This document shows, piece after piece, positions 3,636-8,906 of a stretch of 64,000 nucleotides of DNA. The translations under genes were made by a program, and so were the position numbers. The stretch lies in sequence record PX645697.1; one strand, 5' to 3'. The first letter of the stretch is position 1. Every line of letters begins with the position of its first letter. The stretch is from a phage. Below the pieces are notes generated by a model. That model was not told where the DNA came from, did no database searches, and was given only the letters and a program-made list of their open reading frames with translations.

Positions 3636-5879
3636 ATGGCTAAGCAAAAATATAGTGAAGAGGTGTTGGACGAGTTACGTGTTGACCTTCAACGTCGTTT
3701 TAATTACGCTCAAGGCTACGTGGACATGGCTGTTAAGGGCTATGCTCGTGAAGCTTGGGAATATTTCTATGGTAACTTACCTGCACCAGTAACTGCTGGC
3801 AGCTCTAGTTGGGTAGATCGTACTGTTTGGGAATCTGTTAACGGTACATTGCAAGACATTATTAACGTATTCTGTTCTGGTGATGAAGCAGTTACTTTCG
3901 TAGCTGACAACCAACAGGATTCTGATGCTGCTGATGTAGCAACTAAATTAGTTAACCAAATTCTTCTGCGTGATAATCCGGGATACAATATTATCTCTTC
4001 TGCCGCACAAGAATGTCTGGTTACTCGTAACTCTTTTATCAAATATTATTGGGATGAGCAAACTTCTACTCAAACTGAAGAAGCTGAAGGTGTACCACCG
4101 GAAGCATTAGCTGCATATGTTCAGGGATTAGAAGCTGGTGGACTCAAGAATCTGGAAATCTTCACTGAAGAAAATGAAGATGGTACAGTAGATGTTAAAG
4201 TTACTTACGAACAAACTGTTAAACGTGTGAAAGTTGAATATGTTCCTTCAGAGCAAATCTTTGTTGACGAACATGCTACCTCTTTTGCAGATGCACAATA
4301 CTTCTGTCATCGTGTACGTCGTTCTAAAGAAGATCTGGTTGCTATGGGCTTCCCTAAAGATGAGATTGAAGCGTTCAACGACTGGACAGACACGATGGAT
4401 ACCACTCAATCTACAGTTGCTTGGTCTCGTACTGACTGGCGTCAGGACATTGATGCTGACATTGGTACAGATACTGAAGATATCGCTACTATGGTTTGGG
4501 TTTATGAGCACTACATTCGTACTGGTGTTCTAGATAAGAATAAAGAGTCTAAACTCTATCAGGTTATCCAAGCTGGTGAGCATATCCTTCACACTGAAGA
4601 AGTAACTCACATTCCATTTGTAACCTTCTGCCCGTATCCGATTCCGGGTTCCTTCTATGGTCAATCGGTCTATGACATTACGAAAGATATTCAAGATTTA
4701 CGTACCGCGCTAGTTCGTGGTTATATCGATAACGTCAATAATGCTAACTATGGTCGATACAAAGCTCTTGTTGGTGCATATGATCGTCGCTCTCTGCTTG
4801 ATAACCGTCCCGGTGGAGTGGTTGAAATGGAACGTCAGGACGCTATTGACCTGTTCCCATACCATAACCTACCTCAAGGTATTGACGGCCTCCTAGGCAT
4901 GTCTGAGGAGCTTAAAGAGACACGTACAGGCGTAACTAAACTTGGCATGGGTATCAACCCCGATGTGTTTAAGAATGATAACGCTTATGCAACCGTAGGC
5001 TTGATGATGAATGCTGCACAGAACCGTCTCCGTATGGTATGTCGTAACATCGCTCACAACGGTATGGTTGAATTGATGCGTGGTATTTACAATCTTATCA
5101 GAGAAAACGGTGAAGTTCCTATCGAGGTACAAACCCCTCGTGGTATGATTCAGGTAAATCCAAAACAATTACCAGCTCGTCACAACCTCCAAGTTGTTGT
5201 AGCTATTTCCCCCAATGAGAAAGCAGAACGTGCACAGAAACTGATTAGCTTGAAACAGCTGATTGCAGCAGATGCACAGTTAGCACCTCTCTTTGGTTTG
5301 GAGCAAGACCGTTACATGACTGCACAGATCTTTGAGTTGATGGGTATTAAAGATACGCATAAATACCTTCTGCCTCTGGAACAGTATCAACCTCCAGAAC
5401 CTTCTCCGATGGAAATCCTCCAGCTCGAGATGACTAAAGCTCAGGTTGAGAACGTACAGGCTTCTTCTCAGAAGATGATTGCTGATGCATTCGACCAACG
5501 TGAACGTACTACATTCGAACAGCAGAAAGCTGCGGATGAATTAAGTCTGCGTCAGGAAGAGTTGCAGTTCAAGCAAGAAAATGCAGCAGATGCTATGACT
5601 CTGGAAAACCGTAAAGAAGATAACAATGCAACTCTGGAACAAGCTAAGCACAAGTTAGCTCTTATGCAACAGCAGGTCCGTCAGTATGAGTCTGTACTGA
5701 AAGAATTGCAGATGGTTATGGAACATCAGGTTGACCAAGAGAAGATTGTTCAGCAATCTCGTGTTCAGGATAAAACTTTGGAACTCCAAAAGAAAGAAGC
5801 TAATGTAACTAAGAAAGAGCAACAAGCTTCTCTCAAAGATTCACGGATTCCAGGCAAACATCTTGGAAGTAAAAAGTAA
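3636..5879 (+). CDS. portal protein (head-tail connector), with C-terminal coiled-coil tail
   Basis: 747 aa immediately downstream of terminase; highly optimised codons; Q/E/K-rich helical C-terminus. Confidence 0.65.
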   Translation: MAKQKYSEEVLDELRVDLQRRFNYAQGYVDMAVKGYAREAWEYFYGNLPAPVTAGSSSWVDRTVWESVNGTLQDIINVFCSGDEAVTFVADNQQDSDAADVATKLVNQILLRDNPGYNIISSAAQECLVTRNSFIKYYWDEQTSTQTEEAEGVPPEALAAYVQGLEAGGLKNLEIFTEENEDGTVDVKVTYEQTVKRVKVEYVPSEQIFVDEHATSFADAQYFCHRVRRSKEDLVAMGFPKDEIEAFNDWTDTMDTTQSTVAWSRTDWRQDIDADIGTDTEDIATMVWVYEHYIRTGVLDKNKESKLYQVIQAGEHILHTEEVTHIPFVTFCPYPIPGSFYGQSVYDITKDIQDLRTALVRGYIDNVNNANYGRYKALVGAYDRRSLLDNRPGGVVEMERQDAIDLFPYHNLPQGIDGLLGMSEELKETRTGVTKLGMGINPDVFKNDNAYATVGLMMNAAQNRLRMVCRNIAHNGMVELMRGIYNLIRENGEVPIEVQTPRGMIQVNPKQLPARHNLQVVVAISPNEKAERAQKLISLKQLIAADAQLAPLFGLEQDRYMTAQIFELMGIKDTHKYLLPLEQYQPPEPSPMEILQLEMTKAQVENVQASSQKMIADAFDQRERTTFEQQKAADELSLRQEELQFKQENAADAMTLENRKEDNNATLEQAKHKLALMQQQVRQYESVLKELQMVMEHQVDQEKIVQQSRVQDKTLELQKKEANVTKKEQQASLKDSRIPGKHLGSKK

Positions 5880-7210: not shown

Positions 7211-7251
7211 TCGACAAATTAATTATTTAATAGTATAGGAGCTAACATAAC

Positions 7252-8313
7252 ATGGCTAATCCAACTTTATTTGTATCGTATGACCAGAATGGTAAAAAAC
7301 TTTCTTTTGCTAACTGGATTTCTGTTCTGTCCCCTCAGGATACTCCGTTCGTATCTATGACCGGTAAAGAGTCTATCAACCAGACTATCTTTAGCTGGCA
7401 GACCGATGCACTGGCAAGCGTTGATGGTAATAACGCACACGTCGAAGGCTCTCGTGCTGAAGACGGCGAAATGAAACCGACTGTTATCAAGTCTAACGTT
7501 ACTCAGATTCTGCGTAAGGTTGTTCGTGTTTCTGACACTGCTAACACCACCGCTAACTACGGTCGTGGTCGTGAACTGATGTATCAGCTGGAGAAGAAAG
7601 GTAAAGAGATCAAGCGTGACCTCGAGAAAATCCTTCTGTCCGGTCAGGCTCGTACCGACGTTCTGGCTGACCAGTATCTGACTAACTCCGCAGCTGATCC
7701 GACTCAGATTGGTAAGAACGACACCCATGCAGCTCGTAAGACTGGTGCATTCCAGTTCCTGTGTGCTCACGGCGGTCTGACTGGTGGCGTTGTTGACAAA
7801 ACCAAGAATGGTCCTGCTGACCCAGATACCGGTGCTGTAACTGTTAAAGTTGCACAGAACGCTTCTAACCCGGCTACTAACATCGGTTTTGATGAAGCAG
7901 ATATCTTTGATATGACTCTGCAACTTTACACCGCTGGTTCTGAAGCAGATATCATCATGATTAACCCGGCTCATGCTAAGATCTTCGCTGGTCTGCAAGA
8001 AAACACTCAGGGTTCACGTAAGCGTATCTTTGAGAACACCAAGCAGTTCATCTACGAAGTTAACAGCATCACTGACCCGCTGGGCCAGAGCTACAAAATC
8101 ATCGTTAACCGTTGGATGCCTACCGATGCAGTTTACTTCTTCCGTAGCGCTGACTGGACCCAGATGGTTCTGCGTGCTCCGAAACGTACTGAACTGGCAA
8201 AAGATGGTTCTTACGAGAAGTGGATGATTGAGATGGAAGTTGGTCTGCGTCACCGCAACCCGTATGCTTCCGGTGTTCTGTTCACTGCTGCGGGAAAGGC
8301 AGTAGCGGCGTAA
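7252..8313 (+). CDS. major capsid protein
   Basis: 353 aa following scaffold; strongly optimised codon usage (CGT, CTG, GGT, AAC); SD TAGGAG. Confidence 0.7.
   Translation: MANPTLFVSYDQNGKKLSFANWISVLSPQDTPFVSMTGKESINQTIFSWQTDALASVDGNNAHVEGSRAEDGEMKPTVIKSNVTQILRKVVRVSDTANTTANYGRGRELMYQLEKKGKEIKRDLEKILLSGQARTDVLADQYLTNSAADPTQIGKNDTHAARKTGAFQFLCAHGGLTGGVVDKTKNGPADPDTGAVTVKVAQNASNPATNIGFDEADIFDMTLQLYTAGSEADIIMINPAHAKIFAGLQENTQGSRKRIFENTKQFIYEVNSITDPLGQSYKIIVNRWMPTDAVYFFRSADWTQMVLRAPKRTELAKDGSYEKWMIEMEVGLRHRNPYASGVLFTAAGKAVAA
8292..8298 (+). promoter_or_regulatory. candidate -1 programmed ribosomal frameshift slippery heptamer G_GGA_AAG
   Basis: X XXY YYZ heptamer in capsid frame four codons before its stop; -1 frame is open from 8232 to 8840 and encodes a Big_2 Ig-like domain. 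Confidence 0.55.
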
Positions 8314-8840
8314 CAGTAGATACCATAACTGTTAGTCCTTCGTCGGTTGCAAGCCTTCCGACGGGGGCTACTCAGCAGTTTACAGCTACAGCACAAATGA
8401 GTGATAGCTCCACATCAACAACTGGATTTGTTTGGTCCGTTGAGGGTGGTGGGGCTATTTCTGTTTCTGGACTGTACACTGCACCGAGTGCGTCGCAAGA
8501 AACCCCGATTACAGTGAAAGCTACTAAAGGTGGTAAATCCGGTACATCTACGATCTCAGCTATTGCTGACCCTGAACCTACAATTGTAAGTCGTGGTCCT
8601 ATTGCTGGTAAAGTCGGTGGTTCTACTACTGCCTTCACTACCATGTTTACTGTAACTAATTCTGCTGGTAGTGATTATGATTTTGTTGTAACCCCTACTG
8701 AAGCAGGTACTGTTAGTGCAGCTGGTCTTTTGACTCTTGCTGATACTGCTACTGGTACAGTCTCTGTTGCAGCTACACACAAGACTAAACCTCTTGTAAC
8801 AGCCACTTGTGAATTCACAGGTGTTACCCCCAAAGCCTAA
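8298..8840 (+). CDS. Ig-like (Big_2) domain extension of major capsid protein, reached by -1 frameshift
   Basis: -1 frame reads GSSGVTVDTITVSPSSVASLPTGATQQFTATAQ...; no canonical start or SD at the frame opening; six-frame ORF 8397..8840 is its ATG-started subset. Confidence 0.55.
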   Translation, partial: GSSGVTVDTITVSPSSVASLPTGATQQFTATAQMSDSSTSTTGFVWSVEGGGAISVSGLYTAPSASQETPITVKATKGGKSGTSTISAIADPEPTIVSRGPIAGKVGGSTTAFTTMFTVTNSAGSDYDFVVTPTEAGTVSAAGLLTLADTATGTVSVAATHKTKPLVTATCEFTGVTPKA

Positions 8841-8844
8841 AACT

Positions 8845-8875
8845 AAAGCTGCCTTCGGGTGGCTTTTCTTGTTTT
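8845..8875 (+). terminator. intrinsic terminator
   Basis: AGCTGCC-TTCG-GGTGGCT hairpin followed by TTTCTTGTTTT. Confidence 0.55.
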
Positions 8876-8897
8876 AATACCTATACAAGCTAGTGTG

Positions 8898-8906
8898 TAA
8901 TGTATA
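8898..8906 (+). promoter_or_regulatory. TAATGTATA promoter-like motif (candidate phage sigma factor promoter)
   Basis: exact 9-mer 34 nt upstream of ATG 8940, directly after a terminator. Confidence 0.5.

Follow-up and report, generated by a model that had tools for sequence, protein, structure and literature searches.

A GGGAAAG slip site near the end of a Kuravirus capsid gene and its predicted frameshift fusion to two Ig-like domains

The major capsid protein gene of the Kuravirus analysed here very probably undergoes a programmed -1 ribosomal frameshift, which would fuse the capsid protein to two Ig-like domains encoded in an overlapping downstream frame. According to this mechanism, most ribosomes would stop at the TAA of the capsid gene and release the 353-aa capsid protein, and a minority would slip back by one base on the heptamer G_GGA_AAG, where the tRNA-Gly in the P site would shift from pairing with GGA to pairing with GGG, and the tRNA-Lys in the A site from AAG to AAA. 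The slipped ribosomes would then translate 180 codons of the -1 frame, beginning at position 8298, and the product would be a capsid protein of 529 aa and 56 kDa whose C-terminus bears a tandem pair of bacterial Ig-like domains. The fused and short subunits would co-assemble, and thus a fraction of the subunits may display the Ig-like domains outward on the head. The heptamer would determine the ratio of the two forms, probably with help from a conserved RNA structure that starts 8 nt downstream.

Capsid gene, slip site and the -1 reading frame

The window, by which we mean the whole 64,000-nt stretch of phage DNA that was analysed (PX645697.1), shows 99.2% identity over the stretch to the Escherichia phages NJ01 and 172-1 and has the same gene order, which assigns it to Kuravirus (phiEco32-like). 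The capsid module is also of the Kuravirus type, with a gene for an SU10_MCP protein whose neighbours, the portal, scaffold and adaptor genes, are arranged as in Kuravirus. The capsid gene has a Shine-Dalgarno sequence (AGGAG, 7237-7241), its protein matches Pfam PF17236 SU10_MCP with an E-value of 6.9e-77, and residues 1-352 match the SU10 major head protein (PDB 7z45, E 1e-232). Downstream, the terminator at 8845 closes the capsid transcription unit, and a terminator is annotated at the equivalent place in the SU10 and Privateer records; a scan of the + strand gave no promoter-like site between the capsid gene and the extension. The features of the locus are collected in Table 1.

Table 1. 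Coordinates of the capsid locus in the window, with the basis of each feature
Feature	Position	Strand	Basis or remark
Major capsid protein gene	7252..8313	+	0 frame, 353 aa, 38.8 kDa (38.79), HK97 fold, SU10_MCP family
Alternative hairpin CUGCUGC / GCAGUAG, heptamer as loop (predicted)	8285..8305	+	131-nt fold and RNAalifold consensus
Slippery heptamer G_GGA_AAG (X_XXY_YYZ)	8292..8298	+	in phase with capsid ATG 7252
-1 frame extension	8298..8840	+	180 codons and TAA; translation
Predicted three-helix RNA element, candidate frameshift stimulator	8299..8373	+	directly 3' of slip site
Helix P1 of RNA element	8301-8306 with 8367-8372	+	predicted fold
Helix HP1 of RNA element	8307-8317 with 8328-8337	+	starts 8 nt past heptamer
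Helix HP2 of RNA element	8338-8346 with 8358-8366	+	predicted fold
Ig-like domain 1 (Big_2)	8316..8555	+	extension residues 7-86; Pfam, model, Foldseek
ATG, start of separate 'Ig domain containing protein' in NJ01 and 172-1 GenBank records	8397..8399	+	annotation
Ig-like domain 2 (by modelled fold)	8580..8828	+	extension residues 95-177; beta-sandwich by model
Intrinsic terminator-like hairpin and T tract	8845..8876	+	scan; 5 nt past extension stop

Read in the capsid frame, the slip site is GCG GGA AAG, followed by GCA GTA GCG GCG TAA, which leaves four codons between the heptamer and the capsid stop at 8311-8313. The -1 frame is closed by a TGA at 8229-8231, is open from 8232 and ends at the TAA at 8838-8840. 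An earlier note on this DNA had pointed to the in-frame heptamer four codons ahead of the stop and to the open -1 frame with its 180-codon extension, and both are read directly from the sequence. It had also predicted the protein junction ...FTAAGK-GSSGVTVDTITVSPSS..., which agrees with the translation. The predicted fusion, join(7252..8298, 8298..8840), has 529 aa and a mass of 56.05 kDa, and TAAGKGSSGVTVDTITVSPSSVASL is an example of a peptide from its junction region. Trypsin would cut right at the K of the junction, and the tryptic peptide that comes after it has about 72 residues. Compared with the 38.79 kDa of the short form, the computed gain in mass is 17.3 kDa, and the figure of about 19 kDa given earlier was too high.

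The heptamer alone is not rare, whereas its setting is. The window contains four copies of GGGAAAG against 7.2 expected, and heptamer frequency was thus set aside as an uninformative test of significance. An open frame of 180 codons has a probability of about 3.7e-5 at the stop-triplet density of the window, and reading on in the -1 frame beyond the stop continues for 175 codons here versus a median of 8.5 among the window ORFs of at least 150 aa. The locus presents features by which a programmed -1 site of the bacterial tandem-slippage type is recognised, namely an in-frame X_XXY_YYZ heptamer, a conserved slip site, and an overlapping -1 ORF that is under selection and lacks initiation signals. 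The interpretation of the earlier note as a programmed -1 frameshift appears to hold for all the predictions that it makes at the level of sequence.

Ig-like extension, its conservation and alternative explanations

Pfam Big_2 (PF02368) matches extension residues 7-79 with 28.1 bits (cut-off 22.8, E 2e-6), and the Big_2 domain named in the earlier note is thus supported; its view of a single domain is not, as an AlphaFold2 model of the extension built from a 21-sequence alignment shows two beta-sandwich domains with a mean pLDDT of 95.8, the first of which includes residues 7-34. This model replaced a single-sequence AlphaFold2 model whose mean pLDDT of 43.7 made it unusable. The top Foldseek match is the tandem Big_2 of LigA (E 4.6e-11), with an alignment that spans both domains, and Foldseek also aligned domain 1 with the Big_2 domain of the phi29 capsid over 95 columns with 32% identity and an rmsd of 3.6 A. 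The second half of the extension has no Pfam match even at E<=1, and domain 2 is called Ig-like by its modelled fold alone; it aligns with a second Big_2-like repeat in distant homologues.

The slip site is conserved together with the extension. GGGAAAG was invariant in 17/17 Kuravirus-type loci chosen by capsid homology and in all 15 Kuravirus-type metagenome or IMG/VR matches, which were chosen by a 20-nt upstream pattern that excluded the heptamer itself, and this although none of nine unpaired wobble sites close by is invariant. Pattern matches on unrelated GC-rich contigs whose frames are not capsid genes (e.g., L047, L051, L065, L070, L073, L074, L076, and L081) were ignored, as was L050, with a capsid match of only 18 residues. 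Other clades carry different in-frame heptamers at the same place (C_CCU_UUC, C_CCA_AAA, A_AAA_AAG, and the near-canonical G_GUA_AAG) followed by Ig-like -1 ORFs. SeKF_80 and A24 have instead a second capsid gene with Big_2 fused in frame. Across the SU10_MCP family, this amounts to at least four or five heptamers, with gene duplication and in-frame fusion as the alternative.

Alternatively, the extension could be a remnant, either silent or in decay, with slippage too rare or the fusion excluded from heads and with no function in the virion. We consider this very unlikely, although SU10 speaks for it: this phage is viable despite a 1-nt insertion that closes its -1 frame after 11 codons, its head, the only Kuravirus head solved, shows no extra density by cryo-EM (PMC9509320), and a statement in the YF01 paper has it that the longer capsid band of SU10 was not seen by SDS-PAGE (PMC9965538). 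The loss of the frame, together with heads that lack the extra density and the longer band, indicates that the extension is dispensable, at least in the laboratory. SU10 has an MS entry for a '9+10' fusion (50.3% coverage, 22 peptides), and our recalculation from the published table indicates that capsid peptides alone suffice to explain it. The extension is also absent in Vp_R1, the 7-11-like contigs, L039, and L057. Against a remnant, dN/dS is 0.18-0.37 over both domains of the extension between diverged clades (versus phiEco32, ECBP2, and E20-1), the heptamer does not vary, extensions in several Kuraviruses have grown to 264-540 codons instead of eroding, and the same outcome arose independently via other heptamers and via gene duplication. 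In addition, the frameshifted minor capsid protein of Privateer was found in virions, with two capsid bands on SDS-PAGE and MS identification (PMC7881722). From the slip site on, the -1 frame is under purifying selection, with a dN/dS of about 0.2.

It is very unlikely, in our view, that the Ig-like ORF forms a gene of its own, which starts at ATG 8397 and gives a free 147-aa protein, possibly a decoration protein that binds to the capsid. This is how GenBank and RefSeq records annotate it, PHROG 13745 was built from such 147-aa calls, and the SU10 cryo-EM paper considers that gp10 may be a minor capsid protein in its own right (PMC9509320). However, the -1 frame contains no start codon (ATG, GTG or TTG) between 8232 and 8397, and the 20 nt upstream of ATG 8397 (AGTTTACAGCTACAGCACAA) contain no Shine-Dalgarno sequence, in line with the earlier statement that neither signal is present where the frame opens. 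This start codon is not conserved, its place being taken by K in phiEco32 and by L in E20-1, and the annotated starts vary among relatives; phiEco32 uses a GTG 12 nt past the capsid stop, where the window has ATA. In the AlphaFold2 model, the ATG corresponds to extension residue 34, which closes strand 29-34 and follows strands 7-13 and 25-27, and a start there would cost domain 1 three beta-strands. Correspondingly, Pfam fails to detect Big_2 if translation begins at ATG 8397 and detects it with an upstream start. Extension codons 1-33, all upstream of this ATG, have a dN/dS of 0.18-0.22 and are under purifying selection (the NC-B pair was too close for an informative dN/dS over these 33 codons), and among the relatives only SU10 lacks a -1 frame that is continuous from the heptamer on. 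Thus, ATG 8397 is probably not a real start. A frame change at the RNA level (polymerase slippage on G3A3), or an indel introduced by sequencing or assembly into a truly in-frame gene, was considered since either would yield the same fusion protein, but both can practically be dismissed: nothing specific speaks for them, the G3 and A3 runs are far below the homopolymer lengths known to cause transcriptional slippage, more than 25 genomes and metagenome contigs, each sequenced independently, share the frame arrangement, which excludes sequencing error, and the reported major head protein is the short 38.5-kDa form.

Predicted RNA structure around the slip site

The programmed frameshift that we favour may be assisted by RNA structure. 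The earlier note had found no nearby downstream structure and had placed the closest hairpin about 42 nt after the site, which we correct here, as a hairpin at 8307-8337 begins 8 nt after the heptamer and forms part of the predicted three-helix element. The element has an MFE of -28.5 kcal/mol (z -3.73), and 0/200 shuffled sequences were equally stable. In a comparison sample of 15 distinct sequences that represent about four clades, its pairing was found in 94.3% of cells, versus 30-50% with the partners slid. Covariation was seen at one base pair, 8345:8359 (GC in 8, UA in 5, and AU in 2 sequences), and invariant wobble sites make up 9/16 in the stems, 0/9 in unpaired positions, and 9/65 elsewhere in the domain (Fisher p 0.0056 and 0.0009), which indicates constraint on synonymous sites. 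The usual spacing between a heptamer and its stimulator is 5-9 nt. The invariant 7-bp core of HP1 begins 12 nt past the heptamer, beyond this range; the spacing of 8 nt depends on the outer three pairs, which contain a bulge and a G-U pair.

The alternative hairpin that holds the heptamer in its loop and helix P1 are mutually exclusive; a heptamer-enclosing hairpin has been noted for SU10 (PMC4281155). Upstream, no Shine-Dalgarno-like motif was seen by eye 10-14 nt ahead of the heptamer, and a dnaX-like upstream Shine-Dalgarno stimulator was rejected, with nothing convincing in 8260-8291 and with GGTG at 8271-8274 too distant. We found no mention of the three-helix element in the accessible literature, which notes only the heptamer-enclosing hairpin, and the element is the only item of this work that may be unreported. 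We tentatively entertain, as a real possibility that falls somewhat short of an even chance, that it is an undescribed stimulator which determines how many subunits bear Ig-like domains relative to plain ones, and that the recoding signals turn over across the family in such a way that a capsid with two isoforms is preserved.

Comparison with known systems and significance

The GGGAAAG capsid frameshift is already published for this phage group (phiEco32, SU10, YF01, and Privateer). Researchers have described the same heptamer and event for SU10, YF01, and Privateer (PMC4281155, PMC9965538, PMC7881722), and the YF01 paper places GGGAAAG at nt 8293-8299 and describes a longer isoform of the capsid protein throughout the group (PMC9965538). 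For phiEco32, a trans-frame capsid protein is cited by other authors, and the Privateer record annotates the frameshift product as a joined CDS; the PhiGT1 paper does not mention this frameshift. The head proteins of phiEco32 (gp11-gp12), SU10 (gp9-gp10), and YF01 (gp8) belong to the same capsid family with 92-100% protein identity, and these Kuraviruses share the same GGGAAAG at the same codons, the -1 direction, an extension that begins with Big_2, and the terminator. The differences are small: the YF01 coordinates of the heptamer compare with 8292-8298 in the window, its distance to the stop is four codons here and three in phiEco32, and the extension has 180 aa versus 178 to ~540 aa in other Kuravirus members. 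In NJ01 and 172-1, the nearest deposited genomes, the frameshift is unannotated. There is thus no difference of substance from the phiEco32/Kuravirus system. Proteus phage Privateer (Grimontviridae) has a homologous capsid protein with 57% identity, the same GGGAAAG, and an Ig-like -1 extension; its heptamer adjoins the stop (GGA AAG TAA), and its extension consists of I-set and Big_2 over 169 aa.

More distant systems are similar in part. In gene 10A/10B of T3 and T7, a -1 slip near the end of the capsid gene also yields a minor, C-terminally extended subunit, with a frameshift product of about 10% in a figure cited by the YF01 paper (PMC9965538), and the T3 extension is Ig-like (PMC5009743). 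However, T3 and T7 use another heptamer, their capsid family is only distantly related, and the T7 extension is not Ig-like. In the prolate phage phi29, the major capsid protein gp8 has the HK97 fold and a C-terminal Big_2 domain that resembles domain 1 of the extension (E 0.0022 by sequence), but this domain is in frame, present on every subunit, and made without recoding; SeKF_80 and A24, within the SU10_MCP family, reach a similar in-frame solution via their second capsid gene. Lambda G / G-T uses the identical heptamer G_GGA_AAG in the same host, but its proteins are tail assembly chaperones without an Ig domain and not capsid subunits. The lambda frameshift rate is about 3.5% as cited by the YF01 paper (PMC9965538).

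The main value of this analysis is for annotation, as the correct entry in Kuravirus records would be a joined capsid CDS, whereas the records of NJ01, 172-1, and many other phages of the genus either list a shortened 'Ig domain containing protein' that stands by itself or have no call. The locus is one more case of a known theme, in which recoding adds Ig-like domains to a fraction of phage structural proteins, and such domains are thought to give weak adhesion to cell surfaces. The comparison of heptamers, Ig families, in-frame paralogues, and RNA structure over the family may be of modest use for studies of how frameshift ratios are tuned or for display on prolate capsids, and it raises no new question. 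If the repeated turnover of recoding signals has indeed kept a capsid with two isoforms in this family, it would imply strong selection for partial, and not full, decoration of the head with Ig-like domains.

Capsid gene, slip site and predicted fusion product

Over 7252-8900, the sequence shares 99.2% identity with Escherichia phages NJ01 and 172-1 and 83-96% with many further members of Kuravirus, the phiEco32-like podophages with prolate heads. The window and the Kuravirus records compared have one gene order in common: portal, small ORF, scaffold, capsid, Ig ORF, adaptor, tail fibre. The capsid ORF matched Pfam SU10_MCP (E 6.9e-77), and its residues 1-352 matched the SU10 major head protein structure (PDB 7z45, E 1e-232); its product is the major capsid protein. 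As the earlier note had described, the heptamer reads G_GGA_AAG in the capsid frame, followed by four codons (AVAA) and TAA, while the -1 frame opens past the TGA at 8229-8231 and runs after the slip for 180 codons to the TAA at 8838-8840. The predicted junction, ...FTAAGK-GSSGVTVDTITVSPSS..., was also confirmed in the sequence. The predicted fusion protein has 529 aa, and the computed gain is 17.3 kDa (56.05 vs 38.79 kDa) rather than the proposed 19 kDa or so. The heptamer alone does not stand out (4 copies vs 7.2 expected in the window); the chance of a 180-codon open frame is small (P about 3.7e-5), and the -1 read-on beyond the stop reaches 175 codons, against a median of 8.5 for window ORFs of at least 150 aa.

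Coordinates of the capsid locus and of the helices (HP1, HP2, P1) of the RNA element predicted just 3' of the heptamer
Feature	Position	Description
Major capsid gene	7252-8313	353-aa ORF
Rival hairpin	8285-8305	holds the heptamer in its loop
Slippery heptamer	8292-8298	GGGAAAG
-1 extension	8298-8840	residues numbered after the slip
Predicted RNA element	8299-8375	77 nt after the heptamer; three-helix junction
P1	8301-8306 with 8367-8372	closes the junction
HP1	8307-8337	GGC-G-UAACAGU / ACUGUUA-GUC; invariant 7-bp core begins 12 nt past the heptamer
HP2	8338-8366	hairpin placed by the earlier note at about 42 nt
Domain 2 of the extension	8580-8828	residues 95-177
Terminator-like hairpin	8845-8866	3' of the extension stop codon

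Slippage would involve tandem re-pairing on the heptamer, of tRNA-Gly from GGA to GGG and of tRNA-Lys from AAG to AAA; lambda G/G-T uses the same heptamer. The YF01 paper (PMC9965538) quotes slippage of about 3.5% in lambda and about 10% in the capsid genes of T3 and T7, and the SU10 head has 715 subunits (PMC9509320). With similar rates, unbiased incorporation and 715 subunits, roughly 25-70 extended subunits per head would be expected.

Translation and fold of the extension

The heptamer is kept in 17/17 Kuravirus-type loci picked by capsid homology and in all 15 Kuravirus-type IMG/VR and metagenome matches, which were picked via a 20-nt pattern 5' of it. In every one of those sequences except SU10, the heptamer leads into a -1 frame that stays open for 178 to about 540 codons. 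Upstream of ATG 8397, the 33 codons that follow the slip site show a dN/dS of 0.18-0.22 (vs phiEco32, ECBP2 and E20-1), comparable to the 0.23-0.31 of the remaining domain 1. The frame was said to lack a start codon or Shine-Dalgarno sequence of its own where it opens, and this held: the earliest possible start is ATG 8397, which has no Shine-Dalgarno sequence, in contrast to the capsid gene (AGGAG) and the next gene (AAGGAGG). Nor is any start conserved: at the position of ATG 8397, phiEco32 has K and E20-1 has L, and the GTG start annotated in phiEco32 corresponds to ATA in the window. No promoter-like site was found on the same strand between the capsid ORF and the Ig ORF, which, together with the terminator-like hairpin after the extension, places both in one transcription unit.

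The proposed Big_2 assignment was borne out by a Pfam match above the curated cut-off (residues 7-79), but the extension is made up of two domains rather than one. The AlphaFold2 model (21 sequences, mean pLDDT 95.8) has beta-sandwich domains at residues 7-86 and 95-177. A Pfam search of the protein begun at ATG 8397 returned no match, and a protein begun at residue 34 would lack strands 7-13, 25-27 and 29-34 of the model. The top Foldseek match, spanning both domains, was a tandem Big_2 segment of Leptospira LigA (E 4.6e-11); the C-terminal Big_2 domain of the phi29 capsid protein also matched (32% identity), including at the sequence level. Taken together, several independent lines (heptamer conservation, the open frame, dN/dS, the lack of a conserved start, the fold and the single transcription unit) argue that the extension is translated from the slip site, and the frameshift interpretation is thus supported.

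Over 8499-8837, domain 2 is far more variable across clades than domain 1 (aa identity columns 0-0.4 vs 0.6-0.8) despite a dN/dS of 0.18-0.37, a pattern that suggests domain swapping or quicker adaptive turnover of the outermost domain. Extension lengths in Kuravirus-type genomes are 178, 264, 370, 457 and about 540 codons (variation taken from EP335, E20-1, SR02 and contigs L052, L053 and L063). Because the first Big_2 domain is conserved while length varies, the Ig-like array appears to grow and shrink distally.

A candidate stimulatory RNA structure

The earlier note found no nearby downstream structure; we found that HP1 begins 8 nt past the heptamer, within a predicted element (-28.5 kcal/mol, z -3.73) matched in stability by 0/200 shuffles. 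In a comparison of 15 distinct sequences from Kuravirus, 94.3% of cells pair, compared with 30-50% after sliding partners by 1-3 columns, and pairing in HP1 reaches 99.3%. One HP2 pair covaries (8 G-C, 5 U-A, 2 A-U); its partners are the wobble base of a serine codon and the middle base of a P/Q/L/E codon. As the 15 sequences come from about four clades, there are few independent covariation events. Wobble positions show no variation at 9/16 stem sites, versus 0/9 unpaired sites in the element (Fisher p 0.0056) and 9/65 elsewhere in domain 1 (Fisher p 0.0009). Folding is similar in relatives: in ECBP2 and E20-1, HP1 reaches as far 5' as the base directly following the heptamer, and in the G_GUA_AAG clade a GC-rich hairpin lies 6 nt past the site (z -4.69; the strong GCGCCC-CUAC-GGGCGU in L010/L038). 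Judging from these sequence comparisons, the predicted structure is probably real and plausibly stimulates frameshifting. The rival hairpin, which competes with this fold, is the hairpin mentioned in the SU10 paper (PMC4281155). No mention of a downstream stimulatory structure was found in the papers examined.

Published record and the wider capsid family

The frameshift has already been described as a feature of phiEco32-like phages and is rediscovered here; it belongs to the well-known class of capsid frameshifts adding Ig-like domains, a class that includes those of T3, Lactobacillus phage A2 and Listeria phages. The SU10 paper counts NJ01 among the relatives (PMC4281155). The YF01 paper assigns two capsid isoforms to the entire Kuravirus-like group, puts the heptamer at nt 8293-8299, which differs by one base from the window position, and reports a premature -1 stop in SU10 alone (PMC9965538). 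We confirmed this stop: relative to phiEco32, SU10 (NC_027395.1, 2541-2600) carries a 1-nt insertion in the HP1 loop (ACACTGTCTACTG vs ACAGTGTGACTG), which leaves only 11 open codons in the -1 frame and yields a perfect 11-bp hairpin, TAACAGTAGAC/GTCTACTGTTA. Given this indel, it is expected that Ig protein density was not seen by SU10 cryo-EM (PMC9509320). The SU10 proteomics table lists a '9+10' fusion (50.3% coverage, 22 peptides) beside gp9 (78.1%, 23 peptides); as these correspond to about 265 and 275 residues, the '9+10' entry is explicable by capsid peptides alone and the table is no evidence for the Ig part. For Privateer, SDS-PAGE is reported to show two capsid bands and MS to have detected the minor capsid protein in virions (PMC7881722); the same paper states that the product was observed in phiEco32, and the RefSeq record of Privateer has a joined CDS.

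Capsid homologues of 38-66% identity share the design with different parts, and the heptamers of the tabulated relatives lie zero to three codons 5' of the capsid stop. G_GUA_AAG is an imperfect X_XXY_YYZ site.

Slip sites and -1 extensions of capsid homologues (alternative heptamers from the slip regions of L031, L079, L046, L038, L044, L040 and L022)
Phage or contig	Slip site	-1 extension	Domains
Privateer, vB_CsaP_009	GGGAAAG abutting TAA	169 aa	I-set plus Big_2
Aeromonas-phage-like contigs, LAh_8	G_GUA_AAG	90-169 aa	Big_2 or I-set
PJNS034, contig L046	C_CCA_AAA	132 and 213 aa	I-set/Ig_3
Contigs L031, L079	C_CCU_UUC	118-127 aa	He_PIG in L079; L031 without Pfam match
Contig L040	A_AAA_AAG	42 aa (short)

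The extension is absent from some relatives (Vp_R1 and 7-11-like contigs). Salmonella phage SeKF_80 (1484-4270) and Cronobacter phage A24 (2492-4596) have tandem capsid genes, the first plain (312 aa) and the second with SU10_MCP and Big_2 in frame (589 aa in SeKF_80, 361 aa in A24), so that gene duplication appears to be an alternative route to two capsid isoforms. At A24 4550-5039, the Big_2 match of the second gene ends at profile position 46/79, at the stop codon, and the next ORF, whose ATG lies 2 nt past the TAA in the -1 frame, carries on Big_2-like sequence; this split may reflect recoding for a second time, an indel or an error in sequencing. The family pattern of heptamers and in-frame fusions fits the published view (Atkins et al. 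2016, PMC5009743) that phage structural genes acquire Ig-like domains irrespective of frame, with expression then achieved either in frame or through recoding.

In the GenBank record of NJ01, the closest relative (JX867715.1; locus 1501-2562), the major capsid protein is not annotated as a CDS, and the locus tags skip NJ01_021 between scaffold gene and Ig ORF. The Ig ORF of phage EcK-vB carries a note on N-acetylneuraminate anomerase; the NJ01 gap and the EcK-vB note look like annotation errors. Beyond the published feature, what is left is mis-annotation in the nearest GenBank records and the candidate downstream stimulatory RNA structure.
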